From a virus (lineage: Duplodnaviria > Caudoviricetes): a stretch of 62,850 nucleotides of DNA. The stretch covers positions 1 to 62,850 of IMG/VR virus record IMGVR_UViG_3300018080_000184; one strand, 5' to 3'. This document shows, one piece after another, positions 685 to 62,850 of this stretch. Below the pieces are notes generated by a model. The model was not told the DNA's origin. It did no database searches and saw nothing but the letters and a program-made list of their open reading frames with translations. How positions within the stretch are numbered: position 1 is the first letter of the stretch; every line of letters begins with the position of its first letter. The position numbers and the translations under genes are program-made.

Positions 685-895
685 GCGTGTGAAGCTGGCA
701 GCGTTTGTCTCTGAGCTCACGGACATTGCGGCCAAAGCCCAGCAGGAGTTCGATCCGGAGCGGCTTGCCCAGCGTATTGGGGAGCTTCGGCAGGTACGGG
801 CTTTTCAGCCCGCACTGGACCTACCGTCCGTACGCGAAAAAACTGAGTTGCTGCGGAAAGCGTATCGACAGGCCGTAGAGAAGAGGAACGGATGA
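677..895 (+). CDS. small hypothetical protein (KLAAFxxEL motif)
   Basis: GGAG RBS before ATG 677; ATGA overlap with the sigma gene. Confidence 0.6.
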   Translation: MIERVKLAAFVSELTDIAAKAQQEFDPERLAQRIGELRQVRAFQPALDLPSVREKTELLRKAYRQAVEKRNG

Positions 896-1638
896 CGGAT
901 CCGCTCGAGGAGTTTCTCGGTCACGAAAAGCAGGCTGCGTTGACGCGTGCGCAGAAAGACTTTCGAGCGTGGCAGCAGTGGAAAGAGACGCAGCAGTCAG
1001 ACGATTTGGCGAGCTTGCTTCGTCAGGTGGACCCGCTCATCCGAAAGGCGTCGAACGTCTACGCCGGTAAGGTCAACATTCCGCGATCTGCCATTCGGGC
1101 CGAGTTCCAGATTCAAGCTATCAAGGCATTCAACACTTACGATCCAAAGCGAGGCACGCAGCTCAACACGTACCTGACTGACCAGCTCAAGCGTGGCCGC
1201 CGTTTTGTGACGACGTACCAGAACATCGGGACCATTCCCGAGAACCGCATCCATAAGATCACAACGTTCAACAACGCTCGGCAGCGGCTGGAGGACCAGC
1301 TCGGTAGAGAGCCCTCCGCACACGAGCTCGCGGACAGACTGAAGTGGCCCGTTCGGGAGGTGTCTGCACTGACGGTGGAGTTGAGCAGGAAACCGGTTGC
1401 GACCTCCGCGCTGGCGGCTGATATGAGCAGCTTCAAGCCGTCCGAAGAGGCGGAACGCCTACGGCTGCTCCAATTCGAGCTGGATCCTGAAGAGAAGCTG
1501 GTCTACGAGTATTTGCTGGGCGTGAATGGAAAGCCACAGCTGCGGCCTGGTCAGATCGCAACGAAGCTTCGGATGTCACCATCCAAAGTTTCTCGATTGA
1601 AAAATAATATTGCTGTGAAGGCAAAGCAATACGCATAG
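892..1638 (+). CDS. phage sigma-70 family RNA polymerase sigma factor (FliA/SigF-like architecture, regions 2-4)
   Basis: Region 2 KAFNTYDPKRGTQLNTY, region 3 LEDQLGREPSAHELADRL, region 4 HTH QIATKLRMSPSKVSRLK. Confidence 0.9.
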   Translation: MTDPLEEFLGHEKQAALTRAQKDFRAWQQWKETQQSDDLASLLRQVDPLIRKASNVYAGKVNIPRSAIRAEFQIQAIKAFNTYDPKRGTQLNTYLTDQLKRGRRFVTTYQNIGTIPENRIHKITTFNNARQRLEDQLGREPSAHELADRLKWPVREVSALTVELSRKPVATSALAADMSSFKPSEEAERLRLLQFELDPEEKLVYEYLLGVNGKPQLRPGQIATKLRMSPSKVSRLKNNIAVKAKQYA

Positions 1639-12381: not shown

Positions 12382-12710
12382 CGGACAGACCGCTGTATGA
12401 CCAGCAGGCGGTGGACCAGATTCGGAAGGAGCTGGCCGCGGGTATGGCCTCCGTGCGAGGAACGGAGGTCACCAACAGCATCGCCGCCATCTCGTTTGAG
12501 GAGCTGCTGGCGAGAGCCATCAGCGATATTGAGGACGACGAGAGCGATATCCGGCCGGGGAAGTTGAGCGCTGTGCTGCGAACTCGCCAGCAGGTCGTCG
12601 ATGCGGTTGAGCGAGCCAAGCAGCTGCCCGCCTCAATGTTCGCACTGGCTACGAGGACCGTGAGCAACACACGTCCGGACGGGTCTGGCCCAGGAGGAGG
12701 CGATGGTTGA
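12378..12710 (+). CDS. hypothetical protein
   Basis: Coupled by overlaps on both sides. Confidence 0.6.
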   Translation: MTDRPLYDQQAVDQIRKELAAGMASVRGTEVTNSIAAISFEELLARAISDIEDDESDIRPGKLSAVLRTRQQVVDAVERAKQLPASMFALATRTVSNTRPDGSGPGGGDG

Positions 12711-13353: not shown

Positions 13354-13355
13354 CC

Positions 13356-17126: not shown

Positions 17127-17434
17127 TCGCCTTCCGGATCGAATATTGGCAACTGCGGCTCCAGGCGAGCAAGGTTTCCCATCTCCAGGACAAGCCGAGT
17201 GAAGGGCTCGAAGAGGCAGCCACAGTCGAGGCAGCGGCAATTTTTTCTTGGTATGGGTCGGTCCGAACGCAAAGCGTGTGCGACATCCAGTTCCGGACTG
17301 CAACTTCCACCGCAACGCGGACAGTACGCGTCATCGTAAATCGCCTGGTCTGCCTCGACGAGCTTGGTGAGTACGTCCTCCGCCCCCGCGAGAATATCGG
17401 CCAACGTGTCCCGTGCCATTTCCTTGAAAGTCAT
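17123..17434 (-). CDS. small zinc-ribbon protein
   Basis: CPRCGG and CLDCGC pairs. Confidence 0.7.
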   Translation of the reverse strand: MTFKEMARDTLADILAGAEDVLTKLVEADQAIYDDAYCPRCGGSCSPELDVAHALRSDRPIPRKNCRCLDCGCLFEPFTRLVLEMGNLARLEPQLPIFDPEGD

Positions 17435-17469
17435 GGACTTATAGTATACTTGGGTGTCGAGGAGACAGA

Positions 17470-20199: not shown

Positions 20200-20214
20200 G
20201 AAGGTTGTGCGTCG

Positions 20215-24444: not shown

Positions 24445-24452
24445 GAGCGTTG

Positions 24453-24767
24453 ATGCCGTTCATACCAAAAGTCGATGACCACGCGTATCTTTTTCCAGTC
24501 GACGCATCGAGTGTCGAGGATGACACCATCATCCTTTCGGGACCCGCGACTGGAACTCCACCGGCGTCGTGGTCCAACCCCACGACAAACGATGCGTGGC
24601 ATCCAGCCATCGCTGACTTAGGGACGCCAGTGAACGAGTGGAAGAACGGCACGGGCCACACTGGTTATGGAACGGGCGCCGCACCAAATGGCAGTTGGAA
24701 AGTCGACATTCCGCTCCCGGATGGGTGGTACACGCGTGTTACGCGAAGGGATAAGCTCAAGCCATGA
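24453..24767 (+). CDS. hypothetical structural protein
   Basis: AGGAG RBS before ATG 24453; ATGA coupling to the next gene. Confidence 0.6.
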   Translation: MPFIPKVDDHAYLFPVDASSVEDDTIILSGPATGTPPASWSNPTTNDAWHPAIADLGTPVNEWKNGTGHTGYGTGAAPNGSWKVDIPLPDGWYTRVTRRDKLKP

Positions 24768-25537
24768 AAAAACCTCCTGGACCCAAGACAGTCGGTTTTC
24801 GCGATGACATTCGTGTCAGTGAGAGTCTCGGCCTCACGCTTCGAGATCCTGGCGGGAATATTGTCGGTGCTCGAGGGAAGGGAGGAGGGGGAGGGGGTGC
24901 ACCTCCGGTAAAAATCTTCTCCAACGTCCGTTTGCGGCTGAAGGATGAGAAGGGGCGCGTTGTCGAAGAACGGGAGAGCCACAACATCTTCTTGGATTAT
25001 GGCCGCGACTGGCTGGCGCAACTATGCTCCTTGGACGCCGGCTACCTTCCCTTTCGTAGTGATCGCGTCCGTTACATGGCTTTTGGAATTGGTGGCACAA
25101 GTCAGCTGGTACCCTCCAACACCATTCGGGTCACATACCCAGGCTACCCGGATCAGTGGGTTGCGGGCTCGGGAGGTGCGGGTGATCCCGTCCAAACCGA
25201 TACGGACCCAACCATCACGGCGCTTGAGTGGCCAGTTGAGGTGACGTCGGGAATCTACTACGACGACGTTTCGGCCCCAGCCACATTTCCGGGAACGGGC
25301 ATTGTCCGTTTTACTGGGGTGCTTGGCATCAATGAAGTCAGCTTCGGCACGTACACGAGCGTGCCGCTGTCTGAGATCGGGCTTTTCACCGAAGGTGTTC
25401 CAGATCTGGCGCAGCCACCTATCGTGGCGGGAACATTGCCCGCCGAAAAGTTCATGGTGGCGTACAACACATTCGATACCCTCTCCAAAACGACCGCGTT
25501 TGTGCTGCAAGCTGATTGGGAGCTGCGCTACGCGTAA
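24764..25537 (+). CDS. tail-collar/baseplate fibre-attachment-like protein
   Basis: ESHNIFLDYGRDWLA, YMAFGIGG, LSEIGLF and C-terminal WELRY pattern. Confidence 0.65.
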   Translation: MKKPPGPKTVGFRDDIRVSESLGLTLRDPGGNIVGARGKGGGGGGAPPVKIFSNVRLRLKDEKGRVVEERESHNIFLDYGRDWLAQLCSLDAGYLPFRSDRVRYMAFGIGGTSQLVPSNTIRVTYPGYPDQWVAGSGGAGDPVQTDTDPTITALEWPVEVTSGIYYDDVSAPATFPGTGIVRFTGVLGINEVSFGTYTSVPLSEIGLFTEGVPDLAQPPIVAGTLPAEKFMVAYNTFDTLSKTTAFVLQADWELRYA

Positions 25538-25548
25538 GGAGTGATCTG

Positions 25549-40494: not shown

Positions 40495-40747
40495 CGATCT
40501 CCTTTCCGCTGGCCCGTAGCACTTTTTTCAAAGCAGGGGCTGCTGTAAAGCGAATGCGTCCGTGTTCGACTTCCAATGAAAGCGCGCCCAGGCCGAAGAG
40601 ACTCGTGTGGGCATGGAGCGCCAATTCCACGCCAAGGAAGCACAGGTAGTGGCGGATGATGAGGGAAATATCAGCAGGCCCGAGAAAATACTGCAGGTCA
40701 GATGGGAGCCGCCGATGAATGAGCTGTGCGCGATCGTTGTGAGTCAT
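40475..40747 (-). CDS. HU/IHF-like small DNA-binding protein (short arm)
   Basis: SLFGLGALSL...IRFTAAPALKKVL pattern; ATGA overlap with the polA stop. Confidence 0.5.
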   Translation of the reverse strand: MTHNDRAQLIHRRLPSDLQYFLGPADISLIIRHYLCFLGVELALHAHTSLFGLGALSLEVEHGRIRFTAAPALKKVLRASGKEIDGKIRV

Positions 40748-42777
40748 TTTGCTTCTAGCCACGTGTTGCCGATGCCTGGATCTGCACGCAGTGGCACGCG
40801 TAGATCCAACCCCGGGTGCTCCATGATAAACTGCTTACGCTTAGCCGCCTCCTCAACGTACTCATACGGAGCCTCGCCGACGAGCTCGTCGTGTATCTGA
40901 AGCAGCATGCGGTACTGCAACTGCCGCATGTACGGGTCAGTATGGCAAAGAATCATGGCCGTTTGAATGATATCTGCTGCCGATCCCTGAATGATGGAGT
41001 TTACTGTTTTTCGTTCGGCGTCGCGGGAGAGGCGGCAGGCGTTGCACCAACACAGGTCCCGCCCCCGCATCAGCTCCATATGCCGGTGCGACTCCTGCTC
41101 GCTCCAATCCATGATGTCTGGCAGCAGCCGTCTTCGTCCGAGATAGGTTTCCACATACTTCGTGTCCGCCGCACGGCGGATAGTGCCCTTGATGAACTGT
41201 GCGGCGCCGGGGACGCGGGCGAAGTACAGGTTGATGAGCTCTTGCGCTTCCACCTTGGCGGCGAAATCGATTTGCTTGTCAGACCAATCAGGATGCTCGT
41301 CACGGAGTTTTTCTGGGAACTCTAGCTCGATTGACAGCTTGCGAGCGGCCTTCCCGTAATTCAAGCCAAACCCGATGGTTTTTATTCGGCGCCGCAGCTT
41401 TCTTAGATATTCAGCACGTGACGAGGTGTCGTGCTTGTTTTTCTTGGCTGCTGCCACATCGTCATACGGCTCATTCCACACCAGCTCGACATTGCTTGTA
41501 TGGATGTCACGTCCCATCCAGATGTTGCGGAGCATACCCTCATCATTGCTGAAGTGCGCGAGGAGAAACATTTCAACTTGGTCGTAGTCGTTGACGATCA
41601 GTTTGTGCCCCGGCGAGGCAATGAATGCGTTGCGGATCTCAAAGCCGAAGCTGCTTGTGACCGGAACATTTTGCAAGTTTGGGTCAGAAGAGGAGAGTCG
41701 GCCGGTGTCGGCTATATGCTGATTGAGCGTGGTGTGGACACGTCCATCCGCGTCCATCCGCGTGAGCAGGCCCCGAACGTAAGTCCCCAGCAGTTTTCCG
41801 AGCTTTCGGTGCTCAAGCACAAGCTCGGCTACTTCGACGCCTTGGGCTGCGTAGTGGGTGAGTACGGACTCATCGACTGAGGGGGCGCCGCCGGCGGTTT
41901 TCTTGAGGGGTTTCAGCCCCAGCTTCTCGAACAAGTAGGCACCGACCTGGGGCGGCGACGCTGGGTTGAAGAAGTCGCCGATCTTATGGTTGAGTTTCTT
42001 TTCGATGTCTGCTTGTCGCTGGCTGATAGTCTCCTCGGCCTCAGTCAGGTACTCAACGTTGACGCGAATGCCTATTTGCTCCATGTCGTAGAGCACGCGT
42101 GTGAATGGCACCTCAAGGAACAAGAAGAGATCGTAGAGGGAGTAGCCTCGCCAAGTTTGGATAGCCTTAAGCTGTGAACGTTGCCGGTCGAATAACCGGA
42201 AGACGCCCCAAGCATCCAAGGATGCGTAGTCGATGACCCTATCGGGATTCTGCTGAAACATCTTGGTGAGGATGTGGTACAGCTCGATGGGCGGCTGACC
42301 TTTTCGTGCTCGTGGCTTTTGCGGGCGGCCGCTTTTGTTACGCGGGTAGAACGTTTCGCCGAACGTCATCATACGCTCGTTGAACTCTCGCTCGTACGCG
42401 TCCTTCAACCCGTGCGGGCGGCCGGGATCGAGAAGACGATCGGCGCTAAGTGTGCAGAATAGATCTCCAGCCAGGTGGTGGCCGGAGTTGGCGAGCATGT
42501 GGGCGTCGTATTTTATCTGCGATCCGAGCCAACTGATGCGCTTGTCTTGGAATACTTGGTCGAACTCCTCGAGCATTGGGCGCTCGAGGAAGTATCGATC
42601 GTCGCCAGTCGAGAGCGACCAGTAGACGACGACGCATCGGGAAATGTCCAGTCCGGTCGTCTCCGTGTCAATTGCTACCAGATCCGTGTGAGATATCTTC
42701 TCCTTGAGTCGCCGCACGTCTTCGGGAGTTTGCACGTGAATCGGCCTGGGGCGTGCGAGCGTCCATCCGGAGCGCAT
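40744..42777 (-). CDS. polA: family A DNA polymerase with 3'-5' exonuclease
   Basis: ExoI DTETTG; TGRLSSSDPNLQN; motif A DYDQVE; motif B KTIGFGLNYG; motif C QIHDEL. Confidence 0.95.
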   Translation of the reverse strand: MRSGWTLARPRPIHVQTPEDVRRLKEKISHTDLVAIDTETTGLDISRCVVVYWSLSTGDDRYFLERPMLEEFDQVFQDKRISWLGSQIKYDAHMLANSGHHLAGDLFCTLSADRLLDPGRPHGLKDAYEREFNERMMTFGETFYPRNKSGRPQKPRARKGQPPIELYHILTKMFQQNPDRVIDYASLDAWGVFRLFDRQRSQLKAIQTWRGYSLYDLFLFLEVPFTRVLYDMEQIGIRVNVEYLTEAEETISQRQADIEKKLNHKIGDFFNPASPPQVGAYLFEKLGLKPLKKTAGGAPSVDESVLTHYAAQGVEVAELVLEHRKLGKLLGTYVRGLLTRMDADGRVHTTLNQHIADTGRLSSSDPNLQNVPVTSSFGFEIRNAFIASPGHKLIVNDYDQVEMFLLAHFSNDEGMLRNIWMGRDIHTSNVELVWNEPYDDVAAAKKNKHDTSSRAEYLRKLRRRIKTIGFGLNYGKAARKLSIELEFPEKLRDEHPDWSDKQIDFAAKVEAQELINLYFARVPGAAQFIKGTIRRAADTKYVETYLGRRRLLPDIMDWSEQESHRHMELMRGRDLCWCNACRLSRDAERKTVNSIIQGSAADIIQTAMILCHTDPYMRQLQYRMLLQIHDELVGEAPYEYVEEAAKRKQFIMEHPGLDLRVPLRADPGIGNTWLEAK

Positions 42778-42797
42778 GAGGACCTCCTGTGAGGAAC

Positions 42798-42823
42798 GCC
42801 CGCGACCCCGAAGGGTCGCGGGC
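42798..42823 (-). terminator. 11-bp stem with cUUCGg tetraloop upstream of polA
   Basis: GCCCGCGACCC-TTCG-GGGTCGCGGGC on the minus strand; weak U tail. Confidence 0.6.
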
Positions 42824-42833
42824 CAGTGAACTG

Positions 42834-43904
42834 CTAGTCGCCCCAAACGTCAGAGCCAGCCACAGCCGGAATGTCTTTTTCGGCTGTCTTGCTGCCTCCC
42901 GAGTCCTCTGGTGAATTTCGGAGGCTGTAGGTGTTGCCTGCTGTGAGCTGGGCGAAGTCCAGCGGGCTCATTTTTTCCTTGATGCGAGCGTGGATGTCCC
43001 GGCGCAAGAGCTTGTAGCGGCCAACCGACAGCACTTTCCTGGTTGACTGGTCGCTGGTTGTCTCGTCCGTGGTGTACAGCTCCATGATTGTGGTCCAAAG
43101 ACCGAGCGGAGTCGGGTTCGTGCATTCGGGATTCTCACACCGCGCTTGCTCTTCGAGGTAGTCCGTCTCTTGGCAGTGTGGGCAGCGGTGGGGCTCACCG
43201 TTCAGCTCCGCGAGCTCCCGAACGCTTGCGGGATTCTCCTCCAGATCACGGATGATGCTCTGGCAGTTGTGGCAGGTGAAGGCCACAGGCTGGAGATGGT
43301 CGCCGCACGTACATGTTCGCGCGAGCGTGTTCAGCGCAAATGCCGACAGCTGGTCAGCCATCGGACCTCCAAGTGGGAGGTAAACCGCTCGACCAAATTC
43401 CTTGGGGTTGTTTTGCGCGCAGTGTGGGCACCGCTTTCCGGTGCAAGCAACATCCTTTTGGTAGGTGTGTCCTCTCTTGCTCGTTTCCTCCACCTTGTGG
43501 AAATCTTGGAGGAGCACGGCGTTGAACAGCTCGCACAGATACGCAAAGGATACGCCGGTGTGCCTGCCCTGTGCGGCTTGATCGCATAGCTCACAGGGCT
43601 CACTCCCGGTTACCAGCAGCCCATCTTTCGTTTCGGCGATACCGGCTTCGCATGTGTAGTATCGCCGATCGCTGTTGTGCCAGTGACGAAAGTACACAAA
43701 GAACGGGTACTCCACCCGTCCTGGACTACCATCATGGCCGGCGACGGGCAGGACGTACTTGCCCGGGTACAGCAACGCTGGCACTTTCGGTTCGTCGCTT
43801 TTTGGCAGTATCCAAAGTGGTCCCAGACCACCTCCGCTGCGGGGTGGTCTACGGTTAACACGTTTCAGAAGCCGACCCATCACCCGGGCCTCGTTGACAC
43901 CCAT
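42834..43904 (-). CDS. multi-zinc-ribbon protein, probable ssDNA-binding protein
   Basis: Several CxxC pairs, acidic flexible tail, located between primase and polymerase. Confidence 0.5.
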   Translation of the reverse strand: MGVNEARVMGRLLKRVNRRPPRSGGGLGPLWILPKSDEPKVPALLYPGKYVLPVAGHDGSPGRVEYPFFVYFRHWHNSDRRYYTCEAGIAETKDGLLVTGSEPCELCDQAAQGRHTGVSFAYLCELFNAVLLQDFHKVEETSKRGHTYQKDVACTGKRCPHCAQNNPKEFGRAVYLPLGGPMADQLSAFALNTLARTCTCGDHLQPVAFTCHNCQSIIRDLEENPASVRELAELNGEPHRCPHCQETDYLEEQARCENPECTNPTPLGLWTTIMELYTTDETTSDQSTRKVLSVGRYKLLRRDIHARIKEKMSPLDFAQLTAGNTYSLRNSPEDSGGSKTAEKDIPAVAGSDVWGD

Positions 43905-48151: not shown

Positions 48152-48579
48152 GACAAGTCGTATGGTCCGATTTTGTGTCTGATCTGCACCGATTCCTTGA
48201 TCTCAGTTGTGACAGTATCGCGCAACTCTGCACTGATTTCGCCGGTAGAGACTGCTGCATTGAACGCTTTTGTTTGAATTTTGAATTCGCGGGCGACAAC
48301 GCGGTCGCGCAGCTTGGGGTGCTTTTTGAGAGCTTCGTGTAGCATCGCGGCATCATAGGTTCGTCTCTGCATGACGACGACCTTCATGCCACCAGCCTCG
48401 ATTCGCGTTTCGCCGACAGTGATTTCGAGAAGACGTCTCGCATTTTCGCGTTGCCGAACGAGCTCGTGCAGCTCGTCCATGATTTCTGCATGCTCGCTCT
48501 CGAACGCGAGCAGCTCCCGCTGTGCGTCGGCGTACTCCTGGTACACGCGCGCAACACGGGCTCTAGGACTCTCGGTCAT
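48148..48579 (-). CDS. hypothetical protein (coiled-coil N-terminus)
   Basis: GGAG RBS; in operon. Confidence 0.65.
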   Translation of the reverse strand: MTESPRARVARVYQEYADAQRELLAFESEHAEIMDELHELVRQRENARRLLEITVGETRIEAGGMKVVVMQRRTYDAAMLHEALKKHPKLRDRVVAREFKIQTKAFNAAVSTGEISAELRDTVTTEIKESVQIRHKIGPYDLS

Positions 48580-49249
48580 TTCGCAACTCCTCCATTTTCT
48601 GCTGGGCTTCCTGATAGATTCGATCCAGCGTGTTTACCAGCTTCTTGGCCTCATGCAGGTCATGTTGAAAGAACCATCGTGGCGATCTCTTACGTTTTGA
48701 CGGCTCACGCAGCAGGTGTGCTGGATGAAACATGGGGAACACGGGGTAGCTGACGTTCTTGTAGAATCCGGGGATTGATACGGTGTACAGGTCCTTGCGT
48801 GCCTGCGTGATGGTCTCCGGGATGCCGGTCAACGCTTTGAAGGCAGTGGCGCCAAACGCGATGATGGCGATCGGGTCGATCGTGTAGATTACCTCCTCAA
48901 TGTACGAGCTGCAGGCGGTGAGCTCCGCTGCAGTTGGTTTTCGGATGACGCGTTTGCGCCCGTCGCTTCGGACGAAGGGAACGCATTTAACGACGTTGTC
49001 GATGAACAGATCCGTTCGATCAATTTCGGCGTCGAGCAAAAATTCATTGAGAATCTCTCCCGATTCGCCCACGAACGGAATGCCCTCGTCGTCTTCGGTG
49101 AACCCTGGGCCTTCGCCGAAGACAACGATATTCGCGTGATGATTCCCGACTCCCAAGACGACGTTCGTGCGAGTTTCGTGCAGCTTGCACCTTGTGCAGT
49201 TTCGCCACCTCTCCGTGAACGGGAGGGGGCGTGGAAGCTCGTTATTCAT
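48563..49249 (-). CDS. uracil-DNA glycosylase family 4 (Fe-S)
   Basis: CTRCKL, GEGPG, GIPFVGESG, NVVKC, FHPAHLLR. Confidence 0.93.
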   Translation of the reverse strand: MNNELPRPLPFTERWRNCTRCKLHETRTNVVLGVGNHHANIVVFGEGPGFTEDDEGIPFVGESGEILNEFLLDAEIDRTDLFIDNVVKCVPFVRSDGRKRVIRKPTAAELTACSSYIEEVIYTIDPIAIIAFGATAFKALTGIPETITQARKDLYTVSIPGFYKNVSYPVFPMFHPAHLLREPSKRKRSPRWFFQHDLHEAKKLVNTLDRIYQEAQQKMEELRNDRES

Positions 49250-49727
49250 GCCCTCCACCACGAATCTTGGAGGCGAACTCGGCAGGGTTCAGGTTGTGTT
49301 TCGTGGCCACGTTGTCGATGTCGTGCAGGACTCCGGGCCGCGCAATGGAGATTCCGGCCGCTTGTGCGAGCATCTCTTGGCGCTTTTGCCGCATCTCCTC
49401 GAGGGTGCTGCTGTAGACTTCGCAGTTGATCTCTTGGCTCTCTGGGCTCAACCACGATACGTAGTAGCCCCCACTTGGAGTGACGATGAGCTGCGGCAGA
49501 GGCTCCAGCATCGTCCAATGCAGGTTGGCGAGAGCCAGCGCCTCGACGGGCAGACCATTTGGTCCAGTTCGTAGGGTGGGGCGTACCTCCAAAACATCGC
49601 GGAGGATTATTTCCCGGCCGGCGGCGAATGGTGGTTGACCTACTTCGCTTGCCTTCCCCATGTATGTGTTCGGTCCGCAGAGGACCACAGCAAGTCCTTG
49701 TATGTCTTTCGGCATTTTCTTAGGCAT
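49242..49727 (-). CDS. hypothetical protein
   Basis: GGAGAGG RBS; in operon. Confidence 0.65.
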   Translation of the reverse strand: MPKKMPKDIQGLAVVLCGPNTYMGKASEVGQPPFAAGREIILRDVLEVRPTLRTGPNGLPVEALALANLHWTMLEPLPQLIVTPSGGYYVSWLSPESQEINCEVYSSTLEEMRQKRQEMLAQAAGISIARPGVLHDIDNVATKHNLNPAEFASKIRGGGHE

Positions 49728-54487: not shown

Positions 54488-55391
54488 CTACACGCTCAAT
54501 CTTGCAAACGCCCAAGCCGACGAGTTTGAGAAGATCGCGGTCAGTCTAAGCTCGCCATGGGCCGGTCGTATCGCGGGCGCCCTGCTTGGTGGGGCCGGTG
54601 GGGGCGCGCTGGGAGCGGCGACCGCCCCTCCCGAGCAGAGGACCCTCGGTACCGTGCGCGGAGCTCTATTCGGAGCTGGCGCCGGATTGTTGGGTGGACA
54701 GTTCGCAACGCGTGCTGGTCGACAGCAGGCGCAGCGCTTTGGTCAGCGACAGCTGCACGGCGTGACCGGCTACCTTCCCGGCCGCGGTCTCGTTGGCCGA
54801 GGCACAGAGGGGACCAAATGGTGGCAGCTGGGCGCCCGGGCGCAGCAGCCTCTTACCAAAGCCGAACGGGTGGCCAAACTGAAGGCGATGAAGATGGATG
54901 TGCCCGAACGGCTGACGCAGCAAGAAGCGCGCAAGCGGGTTCGGGAGGGCACCGTCGGTCGTCTACTTGGGATTGGCGAGACGCAAACGGGCGCACGCGT
55001 ACAGGACTGGATGGCCAGACGGATGCTCGCGACGCGGGAAGCGCGGCGCCGTCTGGCTGAATCTGGCATGACCTCGCTTCCGGGTCTGGCGCGCGGCTAC
55101 GCGGGGCGGGCTGGGATGAGCCCACTCGAGGCGGCAAAGCTCAATATCACAGCGCCCGGAATGGCGATGGGGGCCGTGTTGCCGGCTGCCATGGCGGCAC
55201 AGTCTGGAGCCGAGCTCGCGCAGACGGGGGATGTTCGTCAGTTTGCGCAGGGTCTTGGTGAGACGGCCGGCTGGACGTTGGCGGGCGGTATGCCAATCGG
55301 TGCCTCCATGGCTCTTGGAACTCTGGCAGGTAAGGGTGGCGAGGCGCTTGGATACGGAGTCGAGCGCCTTCGGAACCGCCCACAGCGGTGA
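54474..55391 (+). CDS. basic glycine-zipper protein, putative internal virion/ejection protein
   Basis: DEFEKIA near the N-terminus; GALLGGAGGGALG and GALFGAGAGLLGG. Confidence 0.6.
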   Translation: MPNYDYTLNLANAQADEFEKIAVSLSSPWAGRIAGALLGGAGGGALGAATAPPEQRTLGTVRGALFGAGAGLLGGQFATRAGRQQAQRFGQRQLHGVTGYLPGRGLVGRGTEGTKWWQLGARAQQPLTKAERVAKLKAMKMDVPERLTQQEARKRVREGTVGRLLGIGETQTGARVQDWMARRMLATREARRRLAESGMTSLPGLARGYAGRAGMSPLEAAKLNITAPGMAMGAVLPAAMAAQSGAELAQTGDVRQFAQGLGETAGWTLAGGMPIGASMALGTLAGKGGEALGYGVERLRNRPQR

Positions 55392-55395
55392 AATA

Positions 55396-57246
55396 ATGCT
55401 CACTCAACCTGGACGTGGCTCAACTCCAGCGCTGACCCCTGGCCGAATTGGACAGACGGCGTCGCAGACGGTCAGCTATCCGTCGCCCTTTTTCGACATT
55501 GCTCAGACCTACCTGCCACCCACCGTCAAGAGTATGTTTCGTTGGGTCAGGTATTACTATCTGACCAGCCCTCTTCACTCCGCCATCATCAACAAGATGG
55601 CTCTCTATCCGCTGACGGACATGGTGTACGACACGGACAGCAAGGGACTGAAGGATCTGTGGCAAGCATGCCTTGAGGATGATCTGCAGATTCGTTCCAT
55701 TTTGACCGACATCGGCATTCATTATTTTTGCTACGGCAACGCGCCCATCTCTATGTACACGCCAACCGTGAAATGGTTGGGTTGTTCCGAGTGCCACCAT
55801 TGGGAACCGGCCAAGACGGCGAACTATCGATTTTACGATTACAGGTTTCGTCTGACATGTCGGAAGTGCGGCGCATTGAGCACGGCGGAGGTTCGGGAGC
55901 AGACACTGCGTACGACCAGCGGCATGAAGGTCATTCTGTGGAATCCAGAAGATCTTGATATTCACTACAATGCGCTCACGCACGTGTCGACACACTATTT
56001 CAACCTGCCGACGTCATCGAAAAACGAAATCACGTTGGGGCGGCGAGAAACAGTAGAGGATGCTCCGCAGATATTTCTGGATGCGGCCAAGCAGAACAAG
56101 TCCATCGTTATCAACAGGGAGAACATCTACCACCTCAAGCGCGCGGCCATCATGACAGGCCCCCGAGATCGTGGTTGGGGTATTCCGTTGGCGATGCCGG
56201 TATTGAAGGACACGTTCTACCTCCAGATCATGAAGAAGTCCCAAGAGTCTGTGCTTCTGGAGAGACTCCTTCCGCTCGTCACGATCTACCCGCAGCAGTC
56301 TTCCGAGGGAGCCAGCCCCTACAGTATGGTCAACTTGACTGACTGGCGGAAGGCGGTTCGGAACGAGCTGTTTCTTTGGAGACAAGACCGTCAATATATC
56401 CCAATTCTCCCACTGCCTATCGGTCACCAAGTGATTGGTGGAGACGGTAGAGCATTATTGCTGACACAAGAAATGCGCGCGCTGTCCGAGCAGATCATTT
56501 CGGGCATGGGCGTACCTCAGGAGTTTTTCTTCGGCGGCCTCAGCTATTCGGGATCGTCCGTCTCACTGCGCATGCTGGAAAATCAGTTTCTCCGTTATCT
56601 GAGTGGACTGCAGCAGCTTCTCAACACTTTCATCATTCGCCGCATTGCGGCCCACATGGACTGGCCAGCCGTGAAGGTGCGGTTCAAGCCGTTCAAGATG
56701 GCGGATGACTTGCAGCGTAAAGCGTACCTGTTTCAGCTCAACCAGGCGGGCAAGATCAGTGACACGACGTTGTTGCAAGACAGTGATCTCAGTCCCGAAG
56801 AGGAGGACGCGCTGCTCAAGAGTGAGACCAAGCGGCGCCTGGAGGCGGTCAAGCAACAGCAGCTGGCCGAGGCAGAGATTGCTGGCGAGGCGCAGGTGGT
56901 CAACGCGCGTTATCAAGCGAAGGCCCAAACGGTCATCGCTCAGGAGCAGCAGCAGGCCATGGCAGGTATGCACGGTGCCGCTCCTGGAGAGCCGGGCGAG
57001 GGGGTGGGTTCTCCGCCGGTCACGCCGCAGCAACCGGCCGAGGGGTTCGAGCAAGTTGTGCAGCGCATGCGTGCTCTGGATCCGCAAGCACAGCAGCGGA
57101 TTCTGCAGCGGATTGGTCAGAGCAATCCACAGCTCGCCGGCCAAATCGGAAAGGGATTGGGGCTCACCTTCAATAGCCCTGCAGCCGCTCGCGAGCTCCC
57201 CGTCCAACTTCCACCTAGACGTGGCGCCGCGAACGCACAGATCTAA
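55396..57246 (+). CDS. portal protein with zinc-ribbon insertion
   Basis: IYHLKR...GWGIPL, IISGMGVPQEFFFGG...SVSLRML, KISDTTLL portal-like motifs; Gln-rich tail. Confidence 0.75.
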   Translation: MLTQPGRGSTPALTPGRIGQTASQTVSYPSPFFDIAQTYLPPTVKSMFRWVRYYYLTSPLHSAIINKMALYPLTDMVYDTDSKGLKDLWQACLEDDLQIRSILTDIGIHYFCYGNAPISMYTPTVKWLGCSECHHWEPAKTANYRFYDYRFRLTCRKCGALSTAEVREQTLRTTSGMKVILWNPEDLDIHYNALTHVSTHYFNLPTSSKNEITLGRRETVEDAPQIFLDAAKQNKSIVINRENIYHLKRAAIMTGPRDRGWGIPLAMPVLKDTFYLQIMKKSQESVLLERLLPLVTIYPQQSSEGASPYSMVNLTDWRKAVRNELFLWRQDRQYIPILPLPIGHQVIGGDGRALLLTQEMRALSEQIISGMGVPQEFFFGGLSYSGSSVSLRMLENQFLRYLSGLQQLLNTFIIRRIAAHMDWPAVKVRFKPFKMADDLQRKAYLFQLNQAGKISDTTLLQDSDLSPEEEDALLKSETKRRLEAVKQQQLAEAEIAGEAQVVNARYQAKAQTVIAQEQQQAMAGMHGAAPGEPGEGVGSPPVTPQQPAEGFEQVVQRMRALDPQAQQRILQRIGQSNPQLAGQIGKGLGLTFNSPAAARELPVQLPPRRGAANAQI

Positions 57247-57263
57247 GAAAAGAGTTGGGGATA

Positions 57264-57288
57264 GGGCGCCCCCGAGTTGGGGGCGCCC
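57264..57288. terminator. 10-bp GC hairpin between convergent genes
   Basis: GGGCGCCCCC-GAGTT-GGGGGCGCCC. Confidence 0.6.
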
Positions 57289-57304
57289 CTGGTTGGTGGA
57301 GAGG

Positions 57305-57370
57305 TTACCGCATCAATGAGGCTACCGTGATCGCCGCAGTTGCCGCTGCGACGAGGACGAACAGCCTCAC
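57305..57370 (-). CDS. 21-aa hydrophobic peptide (not in ORF track)
   Basis: MRLFVLVAAATAAITVASLMR; GTGA overlap with the upstream ORF. Confidence 0.3.
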   Translation of the reverse strand: MRLFVLVAAATAAITVASLMR

Positions 57371-57549
57371 TCCTCGTCCTCCCCTTCCGTGTCCTCGCAG
57401 TCGTACTCGAGGTCCTCGAGGATCTCATCCTCGAGGTCCAACGAGTCAAAGGCGCCCGTGTCATCGGCACCTTTGCCCCTCAACTGCGAGGACCTTTCAA
57501 CTGCCTCCACACCAACCATCCTCACTCCTTTCCAAAGGCGGGCTAACAC
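57367..57549 (-). CDS. small protein with highly acidic C-terminus
   Basis: Own promoter motif and GGAGG/GAGG RBS; DLEDEILEDLEYDCEDTEGEDEE. Confidence 0.55.
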   Translation of the reverse strand: MLARLWKGVRMVGVEAVERSSQLRGKGADDTGAFDSLDLEDEILEDLEYDCEDTEGEDEE

Positions 57550-57566
57550 GATACCGCCTCATCCTC

Positions 57567-57594
57567 CTTATAACCGCGTCCTTGCTGGGTTTTT
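57567..57594 (-). promoter_or_regulatory. phage promoter motif AAAAA-N17-TATAAG
   Basis: Conserved spacing; divergent from the RNAP gene. Confidence 0.6.
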
Positions 57595-57638
57595 TGCGCA
57601 CTGATAAAGTCGAGCAAAAAGAAAGATGAGGACCTGTC

Positions 57639-60600
57639 ATGGCTCGATTCGACCCCGCAGAGAGTTTTCAAGCTCTCAAAGACCGGGTACAGACGGCGAT
57701 TCAGGAGAGCTTTCCCCAGGAGGGCACCAAGCACATTCTCGAAGTTGACAGCGTTGACGTGAAAGAGGACCTGCACGTCAACGATGTCCCCGCGCAGAAG
57801 AAGGCGAAGATGGGCGGAAGGACGTGGGGGATCCCCATCCACGCCAATCTTGTTCTGAAGGACAAGAAAACGGGAAAGGTTGTCGACCGCAGCCGCCAAA
57901 AAGTGGCGACGCTGCCAATGATAACTAATCGTTACTCCTACATCGTTGACGGGTCAGAGTACCAGGTCGACAACCAATGGCGGCTCAAGCCCGGCGTCTA
58001 CACGAAGGTGAAGCAGAACGGCGAGCTCGAAAGCTTCTTCAACATCAAAGGACGCCCCTTCCATGTGAACTTTGATCCGCAGGAGAAGAAATTCAAGGTC
58101 GCGCTCGGTGGCTCGAATCCTCCTCTCTACCCCATCATGCGAGCTCTTGGCTATGACGATGCGGCGCTCAAAAAGCAGTGGGGCGAAGACATCTTTCAGG
58201 CCAACCGTATGGACACACGCGGCCGCCCCATCAATGTGTCGAAAATCGTAACGAAGTTCGCCGAGCGTTTGGATCCAACGGCGACGGTGGAGAGCTACGA
58301 TCAGGCCGTTGAAGTGATCCGAGACAACTTCGCTGAGACCAAGCTCGACCCGACGGCAACAAAGCGGACGTTGGGTAAGGCCATCGACCGTATTACGCCC
58401 GAGGCCGTGCTGCGGTCGTCGCAGAGGTTGCTGGGCGTCTCGCGAGGCGAAGAGAAGCCGGACGTCCGCGACTCACTCATGTTCAAGACCTTTCACGGCA
58501 TCGAGGACATTCTTGGGGAGCGGATTACCGAGAATCGAAAGATCATTTCTCGTCGAATCAAAAACAATTTGGATCGGCGCGGAAAGATTCGTGACATTGT
58601 CGGCCCAGATGTCTTTAATCGGCCGCTCAAGGATTTCTTCGGCCAGTCGACATTGGCCAGCACAACGTCTCAGACAAATCCGCTCCACATCATGTCGGGG
58701 CAGATTCGGACCACCATCACTGGCGAAGGCGGAGTGAAGGATGCGAATCGCATCACCGAGGACGCGAAGCTTGTGGATCCATCGCACTTCGGTGTGCTCG
58801 ACAGCCTCCACACTCCAGAGTCCGGAAAGACTGGTGTCACACTGCATCTAAGCATTGGGGCGCGGAAGCAGGGGAATGACGTGACCATTCCTCTCTACAA
58901 CGCCAAGACCGGCAAGCTGGAGCACCTGCGGCCCGAACAGGTACACGACTCCATCGTGGCTCTTCCCGATTCGGTCAAACGCGTAGGCGGTAAATTCGTG
59001 CCGAAAAAGGGCAAGACGGTCACTGCCAGCACCGTTGGCAACGAGATGCGGGAAATGTCGATGGACAAGGTTCAGTACATCGTTCCTCGCTCGAGTCAGA
59101 TGTTTTCGATGGCGACGAACCTGGTGCCCTTCATCTCCTCCGACTCCCCCAACCGTGCCACGATGGCCGGCCGGCAAATGGAGCAAGCGATCGCACTCAA
59201 AGAACGAGAGGCGCCGCTTGTTCAATCCGCTCTTGGCAAAAACACGTTCGACGATCTTGTTGGCCGCTTTTCAAGTCAGCGTGCGCATGTAGACGGAAAG
59301 GTCGTCGATGTTTCAAAGGACTACATCACCATTTTAGGCAGTGATCGGAAAAAGCATCGCGTGCCGCTGTACGACAACTATCCGACCAACGACAAGAAGG
59401 GCTTTCTTCACAGCGAGCCGGCGGTCAAGGTCGGCGACGTGGTCAAAAAGGATCAGCTCGTCGCCGATACCAACTTCTCGCGCGGTGGAGTCTACGCTCC
59501 CGGGACCAACCTGACGACGGCCTACATGCCGTACCGAGGCTACAACTTCGAGGATGGAGTGGTGCTGTCCGAAGCAGCGGCAAAAAAGCTTTCCTCCGAG
59601 CACATGTACAAGAAGGGCATCACAACGACCGACGCCGAGGTTTCGGGCAAAAAGAAGTATCAAGCGTACTTTCCGACCAAGGTCGATAAGGAGCAGCTCG
59701 AAAAGCTGGACGACGGGGGCGTGGCCAAGCCCGGCCAGGTGCTCAAGCCCGGTGACACGATCATCGCTGCCATGGCCAAACGCGAGCTGACGACTGAGGA
59801 GCAGAGGTTTCGGCAGCTACACAAGTCCATTGTCAATCCCATGAAGGACAAGGCCATCACCTGGGAGGAGGATGTTCCTGGCGAGGTGGTCGAGGTCAAA
59901 AAGCGTGGCCGGCGAGTGGATGTCCACATCCGCACCACCGAGGCGGCAAAGCTCGGCGACAAGGTGTCCAACCGTCACGGCGGCAAGGGGATCTGTACCG
60001 CCATCCTGCCCGACGAAGAGATGCCGCGAACCGAAGATGGCAAGCCGGTCGACATCCTGTTCAACCCCATCGGCCTCGCCGGCCGCATGAATGCGGGGCA
60101 GGTGTTGGAGGTGGCTGCGGCGAAGATTGCGAAGAAAACCGGGAAGCCGTTCAAGGTCGCCAACTTTGAGCTCGAGGACAATATCGGTCACGTCCAAGCA
60201 GCGCTCAAGGAGAATGGGATTGCCGACAAGGAGACCGTTCTCGATCCGACAACCGGCAAGAAGATCCCCGGCGTGCTCGTTGGTCCTCAATATTTCCTCA
60301 AGCTTGAGCACCAGGTCGACAAGAAGATGGCGGCGCGTAGTCGGGATTCCTACGACCAGAACCTCGTACCCAAAGGCGGCGGCCCAAAGGGTGGCCAGGC
60401 GCTTGGTGCTCTTGGTGTCTACGCTCTGCTCGCACGAGGTGCCAAGGCCAACGTGCGTGAGATGAGCACATACAAGAGTGACCGTGCCAATGCTGGCGAC
60501 AACGACGAGCTATGGATGGCGCTCCAGTCCGGAGAGATGTTGCCGCCACCCAAGCCCACCTTCTCGTACAAGAAGTTCGAGTCCATGTTGCGGGCGGCGG

Positions 60601-62850
60601 GGGTCAATGTGGAGCAGGACGGCAACTCCCTCAACCTCATGCCCCTCACGGACAAGCAAGTCCTGGAGATGTCGAACGGCGAGCTCAAGGACGCGGGCAA
60701 GTTAATCAAGATGCGCACCCTCAAGCCCGAAAAGGGCGGTCTCTTCGATCCCGAAGCAACGGGTGGTCATTCAGGATCAAAGTGGTCGCACATTCCCCTC
60801 TCGACGCCGATGCCCAACCCTCTATTCGAGAAGGCCATCATGAGTGTGGCTGGGATTCGGGGGCCGCAGTATGAACGGCTCATCAAGGGTGAGGCTGGCG
60901 TGCTCACCGACGGAACCATCATCGAGGAGCAAGGGGCAAAAGGGGCGGTGTACGGTCCCAAGTCTGTCGGCCGCCTTTTGGGCAACGTCAACGTCGAGAC
61001 GACGCTCAAGCACGAGGAGGAGAGGATCCCCAAGCTCAAAGGCCAGCTCCAAAATGAAGCCCGCCGACGCATTAAGTATCTTCGAGCACTCAAAAAGACG
61101 GGAATGTTGCCCACTGAAGCGTACATGATGAACAACCTCCCGGTTTTGCCGCCGAATATGAGACCCGTCGCCGTGCTGGATGACGGCCGGCTGCAGACGG
61201 ATGACGTGAATGAGCTGTACAAGCAGTTCGCCATCGTCAACAAGAAGCTCAAGGAGTTCCCAGCCGGCACGCCAGCAACAATCAAGGCGCCTCTCGAGGC
61301 CGATATTTATGATCACCTCAAAGCGGTCACCGGACTAGGAGGCACGCTCAATCGCAAATTCCCGGGCCTCGTGCAACAGATTGCCGGCGTTGAAAGTCCG
61401 AAAAGCGGCTATTTTCAGAACGTCATCATCAAACGCAAGCAAGACCTGACCGCCCGCTCTACCATCGTCCCTGAGCCCAAGCTCAGCCTCGATGAAGCGG
61501 AAATCCCTCGCAAGGCGGCGAAGGAAATGTACAAGCCCTTCCTCATCCGTGAGCTGCGGCGAACAGTGGGTGCCACGCCCCTTCGGGCCAAACAGATGAT
61601 TGACCAAGGCGATCCGCTGGCTGAGAGAGCGCTGGAAAGAGTCGTTCAAGAGAGGCCAGTATTGTTGAAGCGCGACCCCGTTCTTCACAAGTACGGCATC
61701 CAAGCTTTCCAACCCAAGCTCACCGAAGGGAAGGCGATCAAGATACACCCGCTCGTGTGTTCAGGGTACAACGCCGACTTTGACGGCGATCAGCAATGCG
61801 CAAGCGTACTTATAGCCGTCGAAAGATCTGTGTACAACCGCGGTATAAGCTTCTATGAACCACGGAGAATTTACATGACCGCGAGATTCATGGAAGCTGT
61901 AGGCTATACGACCGACGAAGGTGAACTTGTTGTCTGCAACCTCGAGGATTTTCCTCATCTGCCCGAAAAAACTACTAAAGGCCACATCGACTACCATCCC
62001 GTGCCGGAGGGAATACGCGTTGTTTGTCTCGATGAGGCAACGGGAGAGCCCCGCCTTGCGCCCGTAACTGGATGGTCACTTCATCGACAGAGACAGATCG
62101 AGATCGTGACAACGGGCAGTGGTCGCCAGATCATTACAGACGATGATGAGAGGGCCGTGTATGGCGTGGACGCATCCTCTCTTGAATGGTGTCGTCGTCG
62201 GCCGTCAGAATCTGAAAATCAATTTGTTCCGATCATCGACGAAGCGCCTAGCCACGCTGGGTGGATAAAAACATTGCCGCTTCCCGAAGATTCCCGTTGT
62301 CGTCTACGCAACGAGGTGACCGTCGATTTCGACTTCGGATATTTTCTCGGCGCCTTGATTGGTGATGACTGGGTCATGTATGCGGATGGTCGGCCAGCGG
62401 GTGTGGTTTTGGCATCAAGTTATCCTGAGGTGGCGCAAAGGTGGGTTGAAGCCAGCCGGTCGGTATTTAAAGAAGCACCGCATACGTCGCGGGCGGTCAT
62501 TACGGAAGGCAAGTTCGAGAACAGCTGCGGCTGTACAAACCACACCATCTATTCCGCTGCATTGGCCAGGTTCATCGAACCGCTCATTGGCCGCGGTGCG
62601 GAAAATAAGCACCTGCCACCATTTTTCTACGGGGCTTCGGATAGCTTCCGTGAGGGATTGTTGAGTGGTCTATTTGATACCGACGGCTCCATGAGTTGGT
62701 CCAACGCGAAAGAGAAGCCGCAGTTTTTGTGCGCGTACCACTCCACAAGTCTCCGTCTGCTTCAAGAGCTTCAGCATCTGTTGCGAACATGTCGGGTGGC
62801 GTCAACGATAACGCCCTACCAGACACCGCAAGGCGCGCCCTGTTGGATTC
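57639..62850 (+). CDS. rpoBC: fused DNA-directed RNA polymerase beta/beta-prime subunit, intein-containing (3' truncated; not in ORF track)
   Basis: Hand translation in one frame: beta motifs DPSHFG..HTPE, GYNFEDG, GDKVSNRHGGKG, YFLKLEHQVDKK; beta-prime motifs RTLKPEKGGLF, LPVLPPNMRP, HPLVCSGYNADFDGD. Confidence 0.95.
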   Translation, partial: MARFDPAESFQALKDRVQTAIQESFPQEGTKHILEVDSVDVKEDLHVNDVPAQKKAKMGGRTWGIPIHANLVLKDKKTGKVVDRSRQKVATLPMITNRYSYIVDGSEYQVDNQWRLKPGVYTKVKQNGELESFFNIKGRPFHVNFDPQEKKFKVALGGSNPPLYPIMRALGYDDAALKKQWGEDIFQANRMDTRGRPINVSKIVTKFAERLDPTATVESYDQAVEVIRDNFAETKLDPTATKRTLGKAIDRITPEAVLRSSQRLLGVSRGEEKPDVRDSLMFKTFHGIEDILGERITENRKIISRRIKNNLDRRGKIRDIVGPDVFNRPLKDFFGQSTLASTTSQTNPLHIMSGQIRTTITGEGGVKDANRITEDAKLVDPSHFGVLDSLHTPESGKTGVTLHLSIGARKQGNDVTIPLYNAKTGKLEHLRPEQVHDSIVALPDSVKRVGGKFVPKKGKTVTASTVGNEMREMSMDKVQYIVPRSSQMFSMATNLVPFISSDSPNRATMAGRQMEQAIALKEREAPLVQSALGKNTFDDLVGRFSSQRAHVDGKVVDVSKDYITILGSDRKKHRVPLYDNYPTNDKKGFLHSEPAVKVGDVVKKDQLVADTNFSRGGVYAPGTNLTTAYMPYRGYNFEDGVVLSEAAAKKLSSEHMYKKGITTTDAEVSGKKKYQAYFPTKVDKEQLEKLDDGGVAKPGQVLKPGDTIIAAMAKRELTTEEQRFRQLHKSIVNPMKDKAITWEEDVPGEVVEVKKRGRRVDVHIRTTEAAKLGDKVSNRHGGKGICTAILPDEEMPRTEDGKPVDILFNPIGLAGRMNAGQVLEVAAAKIAKKTGKPFKVANFELEDNIGHVQAALKENGIADKETVLDPTTGKKIPGVLVGPQYFLKLEHQVDKKMAARSRDSYDQNLVPKGGGPKGGQALGALGVYALLARGAKANVREMSTYKSDRANAGDNDELWMALQSGEMLPPPKPTFSYKKFESMLRAAGVNVEQDGNSLNLMPLTDKQVLEMSNGELKDAGKLIKMRTLKPEKGGLFDPEATGGHSGSKWSHIPLSTPMPNPLFEKAIMSVAGIRGPQYERLIKGEAGVLTDGTIIEEQGAKGAVYGPKSVGRLLGNVNVETTLKHEEERIPKLKGQLQNEARRRIKYLRALKKTGMLPTEAYMMNNLPVLPPNMRPVAVLDDGRLQTDDVNELYKQFAIVNKKLKEFPAGTPATIKAPLEADIYDHLKAVTGLGGTLNRKFPGLVQQIAGVESPKSGYFQNVIIKRKQDLTARSTIVPEPKLSLDEAEIPRKAAKEMYKPFLIRELRRTVGATPLRAKQMIDQGDPLAERALERVVQERPVLLKRDPVLHKYGIQAFQPKLTEGKAIKIHPLVCSGYNADFDGDQQCASVLIAVERSVYNRGISFYEPRRIYMTARFMEAVGYTTDEGELVVCNLEDFPHLPEKTTKGHIDYHPVPEGIRVVCLDEATGEPRLAPVTGWSLHRQRQIEIVTTGSGRQIITDDDERAVYGVDASSLEWCRRRPSESENQFVPIIDEAPSHAGWIKTLPLPEDSRCRLRNEVTVDFDFGYFLGALIGDDWVMYADGRPAGVVLASSYPEVAQRWVEASRSVFKEAPHTSRAVITEGKFENSCGCTNHTIYSAALARFIEPLIGRGAENKHLPPFFYGASDSFREGLLSGLFDTDGSMSWSNAKEKPQFLCAYHSTSLRLLQELQHLLRTCRVASTITPYQTPQGAPCWI
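61791..62850 (+). mobile_element. intein with LAGLIDADG homing endonuclease inserted after NADFDGD (3' end outside window)
   Basis: Beta-prime similarity stops after DFDGD(Q); GYFLGALIGDD (about 62337) and LLSGLFDTDGS (about 62658); NKHLP and STSLRLLQELQHLL intein-endonuclease motifs. Confidence 0.88.

Follow-up and report, generated by a model that had tools for sequence, protein, structure and literature searches.

The window analyzed here, a stretch of 62,850 bp, is the linear IMG/VR virus record IMGVR_UViG_3300018080_000184, which is estimated to be ~36% complete and comes from an uncultured large phage. At its 3′ end lies a gene for a bacterial-type RNA polymerase (RNAP) core in which the β and β′ subunits form one chain, with an intein placed directly at the catalytic NADFDGD motif. 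Taken as a whole, we consider it likely that this is a genuine phage gene whose 510-residue intein is removed by self-splicing, giving a mature single chain that would need neither an α2 platform nor ω, would be directed to promoters by phage sigma-70-family factors, and would be packed into the virion and injected to transcribe the early genes. The frame that starts at the ATG at 57639 (57639..62849, plus strand) is open for 1737 amino acids (aa) and leaves the window at its 3′ end; only part of the RNAP gene is present, as the contig ends inside the intein. The frame has three parts:

57639..60614, plus strand: β-like part of the fused RNAP, residues 1–992 (Pfam Rpb2_3 and Rpb2_6; NCBIfam rpoB).
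60615..61790, plus strand: N-terminal part of β′, residues 993–1384, ending in NADFDGD (Pfam Rpb1_1 and Rpb1_2; Salmonella alignment).
61791..62850, plus strand: LAGLIDADG intein, first 353 of 510 residues (in-frame insert; LAGLIDADG_3; P0009 match).

Judged by its domains, the first part is a bacterial-type RNAP β subunit (RpoB/Rpb2) with Rpb2 domains 3 and 6. Rpb2_3 (PF04565) matches at residues 344–408 (E = 5e-7) and Rpb2_6 (PF00562) at residues 574–906 (E = 1e-61), both over the Pfam cut-off; the Rpb2 domain matches include the second double-psi barrel, and the GxHGNKG-type motif of β reads NRHGGKG (residues 778–784). The part that follows can likewise be classified as bacterial-type β′ (RpoC/Rpb1) by its Mg-binding loop NADFDGD (residues 1378–1384, nucleotides 61770–61790), by Rpb1 domains 1 and 2, and by the C-terminal half of the protein described below. 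Rpb1_2 (PF00623) matches at residues 1331–1388 (E = 1e-21), and Rpb1_1 (PF04997), at residues 1131–1206, stays just under its cut-off (38.9 vs 39.7 bits). The NCBIfam alignments span residues 247–992 for rpoB and 1103–1396 for rpoC. None of the equivalog cut-offs was reached (354 vs 896 bits for rpoB), and the β part of the window is therefore an RpoB homologue, not an orthologue by NCBI’s rule.

A first-pass annotation of this DNA had described a phage-encoded, streamlined, single-chain β/β′ polymerase, and much of it holds: the window is an IMG/VR virus record, the frame from 57639 carries collinear RpoB motifs over the expected ~990 residues (992 by our delimitation), the passage from RpoB into RpoC that had been placed near 60620 lies at nucleotides 60614/60615, and the scan for Rpb2 and Rpb1 domains that it had proposed returned Rpb2_3, Rpb2_6, Rpb1_1, and Rpb1_2 in this order. 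It had ended the gene at 61793; NADFDGD was correctly recognized, whereas this end lies one codon beyond the motif, and the frame goes on for 353 residues as intein. The intein at the catalytic loop, the incompleteness of the gene in the window, and the loss of the β′ zinc-binding domain had all been missed.

The β part stops at residue 992 (nucleotide 60614, ...AGVNVE), 4 residues before the C terminus of Salmonella β, and the β′ part opens at residue 993 (nucleotide 60615), aligned from Salmonella β′ residue 15. Taken alone, the N-terminal β′ alignment is weak (E = 0.019), yet it is collinear and contains the KPE..GLF motif. On these alignments, the join from β to β′ is head to tail, with no linker. 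A scan of IMG/VR revealed the same single-chain gene at 68 loci; the matching pieces are all in one frame in 68/68, the gene is near full-length in 61/68, and the junction is crossed in one frame in all 64 related loci that reach it, as expected for the single chain proposed earlier. Independent assemblies were also compared, using contigs from four public runs of four studies (sediment and seawater), with a possible source run left out. The stop, frameshift, or chimeric join that might have been hidden at the junction was looked for in these contigs, which showed 0 differences from the window, no joints, and no indels; three of the four bridge the β/β′ junction, and two of the four bridge the extein/intein junction. 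None of the sequencing runs listed as carrying the sequence was an RNA data set. The fused gene is genuine and not an artefact.

These data also bear on the idea that the gene is host rpoB–rpoC DNA, either as an assembly chimera or as a recent acquisition in which a deletion fused the frames. Pfam and NCBIfam do give bacterial rpoB and rpoC as their best matches, but the gene is common to 68 viral loci, the independent contigs are identical across the junction, and the flanking genes are phage genes. Among bacterial genomes, the best 80 of 599 matches are ordinary rpoB–rpoC genes with 27–35% identity, that is, never above 35%; the lack of a close copy among these 80 is weak evidence against prophage copies. 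A tree (53 rows, 1916 columns, quick IQ-TREE search, LG+G4, no outgroup, built without phiKZ-type enzymes and without Helicobacter or Wolbachia rows, support given only as the Shimodaira–Hasegawa-like approximate likelihood ratio test, SH-aLRT) sets all 25 sampled bacteria, which represent at least 12 phyla, apart by a branch with a support of 100. Two split phage rows cluster with the 23 fused rows (100), and within this cluster the fused rows are again united (100), so that 25 bacterial and 25 phage rows stand on opposite sides of branches that each have a support of 100. Three phages with separate β and β′ genes are on long, unresolved branches. The separate acquisition suggested in the first-pass annotation is conjectural. 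A nesting among host rpoBC genes is not seen: the phage clade is placed outside the full set of 25 sampled bacteria, and, given this and the low identity to bacterial rpoBC, the gene is not a recent host capture. A host origin of this kind is already contradicted, and we give it almost no credence. As a side observation, the best-scoring bacterial rpoBC loci (L093–L172) are mostly Bacteroidota, with which the phage clade does not group in the tree; this bias may be due to the [FY]NADFDGD search pattern.

The rest of the gene could be read from a protein collection, in which P0009 (2563 aa) is 100% identical over all 1737 window residues and is the full product of the window gene; the C-extein of this gene is known from P0009 only. 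P0009 consists of an N-extein (residues 1–1384, 1384 aa), the intein (1385–1894, 510 aa), and a C-extein (1895–2563, 669 aa) that starts with TMSAYVPI, directly after the LSN that ends the intein. The exteins would give a spliced product of 2053 aa. Among intein-free relatives the closest is L004, with 68% identity and from a 178.5-kb record rated complete; its RNAP gene is a single 2053-aa open reading frame (ORF) with Rpb1_5 in its C-terminal half, a domain matched with E = 3.5e-23 in relatives. A second Zn site is kept, its Cys residues (1697, 1758, 1765, and 1768) being invariant in 10 diverse members.

The description of the enzyme as streamlined is borne out by the length of its extein, 2053 aa vs 1342 + 1407 aa in Salmonella. 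The missing stretches were determined by aligning L004 and are given in Salmonella numbering: 239–294, 321–354, 938–1049, and 1125–1178 of β, and 1–16, 68–99, 943–1125, and 1371–1407 of β′ are absent from the L004 chain. Several of these stretches are lineage-specific insertions of proteobacterial subunits. Residues 68–99 of Salmonella β′ are the stretch with the four Cys of the zinc-binding domain and have no counterpart in L004; the same gap is seen when L004 is aligned to the smaller Staphylococcus enzyme. In the window, there is no Cys at residues 1034–1063, between the GLF and PNPLF motifs, so that the N-terminal four-Cys zinc-binding domain of β′ is, as judged from the alignments, lost. 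Lineage-specific insertions of the cellular subunits and this zinc-binding domain are both gone from the fused chain.

Cultured relatives exist. Salmonella phage Arash (gp206 + gp216) and Vibrio phages D69, D181, and D148 fall in the same clade (SH-aLRT 100) and share the fusion of β to the N-terminal part of β′ (β–β′N) at 34% identity. Their enzyme differs from the single chain of the window gene in having two chains, of ~1525 and ~606 aa. The ~1525-aa chain covers β and β′ to ~85 residues past NADFDGD, which puts the split near residue 1470 of the fused form. The Arash proteins have been named “beta” and “beta′,” and the fusion is not mentioned in the accessible part of the report (PMC10585845); the RNAP genes of Vibrio phages D69, D181, and D148 are annotated as hypothetical. 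No intein is annotated at NADFDGD in the Arash and Vibrio records, a statement about the annotation only, no intein search of our own having been made in those records. In D181 (L072, 5477–6425) and D148, the β–β′N gene, which is intact in D69, is broken into two annotated ORFs upstream of NADFDGD; between them lie small ORFs and a free-standing gene for a homing endonuclease. An intron or the insertion of a mobile endonuclease would seem to fit this interruption better than an intein.

The insert in the window gene is in frame. It separates the third catalytic Asp of NADFDGD from the Thr that comes next in the polymerase, and it is absent from the close relatives L004 and L002. With this placement, the Mg-binding loop and the strand that follows it are joined only after removal of the intein. 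An AlphaFold2 (AF2) model of the L003 orthologue, with a mean predicted local distance difference test score (pLDDT) of 78.6, has intein homing endonucleases as its best matches; the best PDB match is the TliVMA intein (E = 3e-19), and PI-PfuI, PI-PkoII, and PI-SceI are also matched. In the window frame, Pfam LAGLIDADG_3 is found at residues 1672–1727, and one orthologue passed the intein C-terminal motif TIGR01443 (17.7 bits vs a cut-off of 15.6). By the general marks of inteins, i.e., an in-frame position, a HINT fold, a C-terminal Asn, and Thr at +1, the insert is an intein. Among related loci that cover the NADFDGD site, 6/63 carry an insert there. A single-sequence scan with the intein part of the window found one viral locus, and an alignment-based scan found 16. 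A search with the region yielded 211 proteins, and 103 complete inteins were taken from the best 120, so that the family has at least 103 members. Their conserved positions are as follows:

Residue −1: Asp in 103/103.
Position 1: Gln in 53/103, as in the window intein; any of 14 other residues in 50/103 (15 residues in total); Cys or Ser in 6/103.
Position 2: Gln in 79/103.
Block F position 4 (F:4): Asp in 103/103.
Last three residues: Leu-Ser-Asn in 103/103.
Position +1: Thr in 102/103; Ser in one.

With no N-terminal nucleophile, the family is not class 1; the window intein has neither Cys/Ser1 nor the block B Thr-x-x-His of that class. Aligned to the TxxH of PI-PkoII and to the SEDH of Ser1-type relatives, the corresponding family stretch reads T-D-D-D-E/P-R (T-D-D-D-E-R in the window), in which two Asp and the Arg are invariant or nearly so. 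Three relatives at the NADFDGD site (L009, L010, and L025) have S1 and SEDH, which suggests that the family arose in place from a class 1 ancestor. Class 3 (WCT) inteins, found in phage and helicase genes, are similar in lacking an N-terminal nucleophile, in having Thr or Ser at +1, and in their link to phages (PMC2807308), but the block F Cys that defines them is Asp here. Without this Cys, the family is not class 3; instead of the WCT triplet there is Asp at F:4 in 103/103, Arg at B:12, and a penultimate Ser. The Cys residues in VVCNL and EWCRRRP (window, L003, and L015) were considered as a class-3-like internal nucleophile and rejected, as they are not conserved in the 103 members; among these, no Cys is conserved anywhere.

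The class 2 (KlbA) inteins are alike in their non-nucleophilic residue 1, penultimate Ser, Asp at F:4, and C-terminal Asn (PMC4031507), and the class 2 signature (a non-nucleophilic residue 1, no WCT triplet, a penultimate Ser, and Asp at F:4) is found in the NADFDGD family. Class 2 inteins as described in a 2014 review have Ala1 and Cys+1 and require Thr B:7 and His B:10, and all of those known at that time were KlbA orthologues (PMC4031507). The NADFDGD family differs in its variable residue 1, its Thr+1, its T-D-D-D-x-R in place of TxxH, and its RNAP host protein, and thus lacks the Cys+1, the block B His, and the KlbA orthology of class 2.

From these sequence features we infer that the window intein is removed by self-splicing. 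By a class-2-like route, Thr+1 would attack the Asp(−1)–Gln1 bond directly, and the C-terminal Asn would then cyclise. Several observations count against this proposal: the position-1 nucleophile is missing in 97/103 family members, the stretch aligned to block B has no His, and Arsp-FB24, an intein without an N-terminal nucleophile, has been reported as a pseudogene. In addition, the pLDDT of the AF2 model falls below 50 at residues 1–9 and 497–514, which are both splice junctions, and no model geometry therefore backs the proposed attack by Thr+1.

For the intein, the chief competing explanation is that no ligation takes place. The insert would then not be spliced in the normal way but would either undergo only Asn cyclisation, yielding β–β′N–intein and the C-terminal part of β′ as two chains, similar to the two-chain enzymes of Arash and D69, or stay in the mature enzyme. 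In its favor are the missing position-1 nucleophile and block B His, the invariant C-terminal pattern of LSN followed by Thr, and the cultured relatives, which function with a natural split ~85 residues downstream. Conversely, a 510-residue domain kept on the Mg-binding loop of the active site would be hard to square with catalysis, the family is large and conserved and sits in the only RNAP gene of these phages, and its residues at position 1 (variable), at the penultimate position (Ser), and at F:4 (Asp) match those of inteins that are described as splicing without an N-terminal nucleophile. On balance, we find the absence of ligation improbable and retain self-splicing as the preferred reading. 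A more far-reaching idea, which we put forward tentatively and regard as rather doubtful, is that the NADFDGD inteins are a second independent lineage splicing without an N-terminal nucleophile and the first with Thr+1 and without a block B His; the scissile bond might be activated by the invariant D-D-D-x-R cluster, or even by the catalytic Asp(−1) via a cyclic anhydride. Since the Mg-binding loop that houses the intein belongs to a probably virion-packed polymerase, splicing could also be a switch that times polymerase activity. No description of inteins of this kind at NADFDGD was found in the literature (subscription journals not covered).

Inteins in this gene vary in other ways as well. 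At residue 193 of the window intein (nucleotides 62367–62369), the first LAGLIDADG motif reads GDDW, compared with GDGW in 97% of the 103 members, and the homing endonuclease of the window copy may thus be impaired. A second intein site lies in the β motif between GDK and xGRHGNKG and is occupied in 8/65 loci covering it (L003, at 12326–13393, L009, L049–L053, and L065); the L003 insert at this site starts with Cys and ends with ...SGN before Ser and looks like a canonical class 1 intein. L015 (= P0014, 3368 aa) has four in-frame inserts, after reference residues 634, 1395, and 1806 and at the NADFDGD site. With long members such as P0007 (3966 aa) and P0013 (3990 aa), the total can nearly double the 2053-aa extein. 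The L046 intein (14246–15523), at the same NADFDGD site, starts with Cys after a motif that reads NADFDGN and ends with VWD before TMS. If the L046 boundaries were canonical, splicing would leave Asn in place of the third catalytic Asp, and restoring NADFDGD needs a shift of both junctions by one residue. Such a shifted splice site, with cuts between G and D upstream and between W and D downstream, was rejected, since the motif, although mended in L046, would be lost in genes of the window type.

Three further ORFs of the window, among them one for a candidate sigma factor, bear on the role of the polymerase in infection:

55231..57246, plus strand: portal protein homologue, 671 aa, directly upstream of the RNAP gene (27% identity, E = 4e-74, to Arash gp204).
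57255..57629, plus strand: small ORF, 124 aa, between the portal and RNAP genes (ORF list).
892..1638, plus strand: sigma-70 family factor (PHROG 351, E = 4e-10; Pfam Sigma70_r3, E = 4e-10).

The position beside a portal gene, remarked on in the first-pass annotation, is confirmed by the similarity to gp204 of Arash, a protein with a portal annotation that was detected in virions. The identity of the ORF depends on this similarity, as no PHROG or Pfam portal match was obtained. In Arash and the Vibrio relatives the RNAP gene likewise follows the portal gene, and the two genes are neighbors in all relatives examined. A small ORF is found at the equivalent position in Arash (gp205) and D69 (gene 0260), so that the order portal, small ORF, RNAP is common to the window, Arash, and D69; a tblastn search with Arash gp205 gave no match in the window, and the small ORFs have no detected sequence similarity.

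In virion mass spectrometry of Arash (PMC10585845), gp206 ranks first among the detected proteins with 3516 spectra, compared with 1333 for the major capsid protein, and gp216 has the fifth highest count (1210 spectra). Arash also encodes sigma factors, one of which, gp10, was detected in virions (PMC10585845). By analogy, the window polymerase is probably packed in the virion. Packaging had been suggested in the first-pass annotation, and the support gained from Arash proteomics and the shared gene order is indirect. Some caution comes from the Arash authors themselves, who point out that proteins abundant during infection may contaminate purified particles (PMC10585845), and from the fact that the virion evidence concerns a relative with 34% identity and a two-chain enzyme.

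As for the biology, the chief alternative is a role outside the virion, in which the polymerase is made after infection for middle and late transcription and a sigma-redirected host RNAP reads the early genes. The phage sigma-70-family factors could equally serve the host core enzyme, there is one RNAP gene per genome rather than the virion and non-virion pairs described for phiKZ-type phages (PMC7598289), and carry-over is conceded as possible by the Arash authors. Against this stand the first and fifth ranks of the Arash RNAP chains in virion spectral counts, with gp206 above the major capsid protein, and the position of the RNAP gene next to the portal gene in all relatives examined. We regard the non-virion role as unlikely, if less so than an unligated intein, and favor packaging.

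The requirement for other subunits was assessed in five complete relatives (178–196 kb, four with terminal repeats), each of which has exactly one β–β′ gene with an open frame of 2067–2217 aa. Neither α (PF01000, PF01193) nor ω (PF01192) was found in any of the five, whereas all 14 control genomes were positive. The bacterial core, with α and ω encoded and required, is therefore not what these five genomes encode; the window itself covers ~36% of its genome. The independence from α that had been proposed earlier is supported only indirectly by this absence, since the phage enzyme may use host α, which weakens our interpretation. It is also weakened by the sigma genes: Sigma70_r2 is matched in only 3/5 complete relatives, and over the Pfam cut-off in two. 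In the window, ORF 892..1638, with 33% identity to a sigma-like ORF of a complete relative, is a candidate promoter-specificity subunit for the phage polymerase.

The enzyme can be set apart from other known polymerases. The rpoBC fusions of Helicobacter/Wolinella and Wolbachia, bacteria that keep α and ω, also have β and β′ in one polypeptide and in the same order. Against their models (NF007172 and NF011417), the window scores 396.5 vs a cut-off of 5372 bits and 342.8 vs 4632 bits, and these models have 2839–2890 positions compared with 2053 aa for the phage enzyme. The phiKZ/AR9-type RNAPs are alike in being phage-encoded, with a two-barrel core and no α or ω, and one of their sets is virion-packed; they differ in consisting of 4–5 polypeptides, in occurring as two sets in each genome, in their strong divergence, and in lacking a recognizable sigma (PMC7598289). 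Here, in contrast, there is one chain in one copy, with clear similarity to the bacterial subunits and with sigma-70-family genes, and the enzyme is not of the phiKZ type. The mReC phages (Weinheimer and Aylward 2020) are similar in being tailed and mostly <200 kb, with a β and β′ that cellular profiles recognize and that branch apart from cells (PMC7481178), and in part 10 of 15 of their supplementary file 2, 48/48 rows list two different genes for β and β′. The cultured Cobetia phage Carin-5, in which a sigma gene adjoins the RNAP genes, Rhizobium phage RHph_TM30, and Vibrio phage 1.031.O have separate β and β′ genes, unlike the window.

No description of a fully fused phage β–β′ of bacterial type was found in the literature (subscription journals not covered), and no follow-up work on Arash was found there. 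Some relatives carry automatic Joint Genome Institute (JGI) names such as “beta subunit/beta′ subunit/intein/homing...”; they are therefore publicly available under machine-made labels, apparently without having been analysed.

The other nameable ORFs of the window are phage genes, for a tail sheath, DNA polymerase, DnaB, a UvsX-like recombinase, RusA, and a Cas4-like nuclease. Very large ORFs (984, 1256, 909, 1409, and 889 aa) follow one another on the plus strand at 9427–28185, upstream of the tail sheath gene. Almost nothing in them matches a known family, the exceptions being DUF2793 and PKD in a single ORF and a beta-helix in a second one; they probably encode tail fibre or baseplate proteins. 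DNA polymerase I-like matches occur in two ORFs ~6 kb apart on the minus strand (40744–42846 and 48563–49261), the latter matching no more of the PHROG profile than its N-terminal, exonuclease-side part, which suggests that the DNA polymerase of the window is split across two ORFs.

With both catalytic barrels in a single chain of ~2050 residues, without α, ω, or the zinc-binding domain, and probably with the use of a sigma-70-type factor, the phage enzyme would be the simplest cellular-type RNAP core known. It would offer a natural test of the roles of α and ω, a compact structural subject, and a candidate orthogonal transcription module. Inteins that lack an N-terminal nucleophile have been very few, and the family described here contributes >100 more; its placement at the most conserved motif of the enzyme makes a variant splicing chemistry directly testable.

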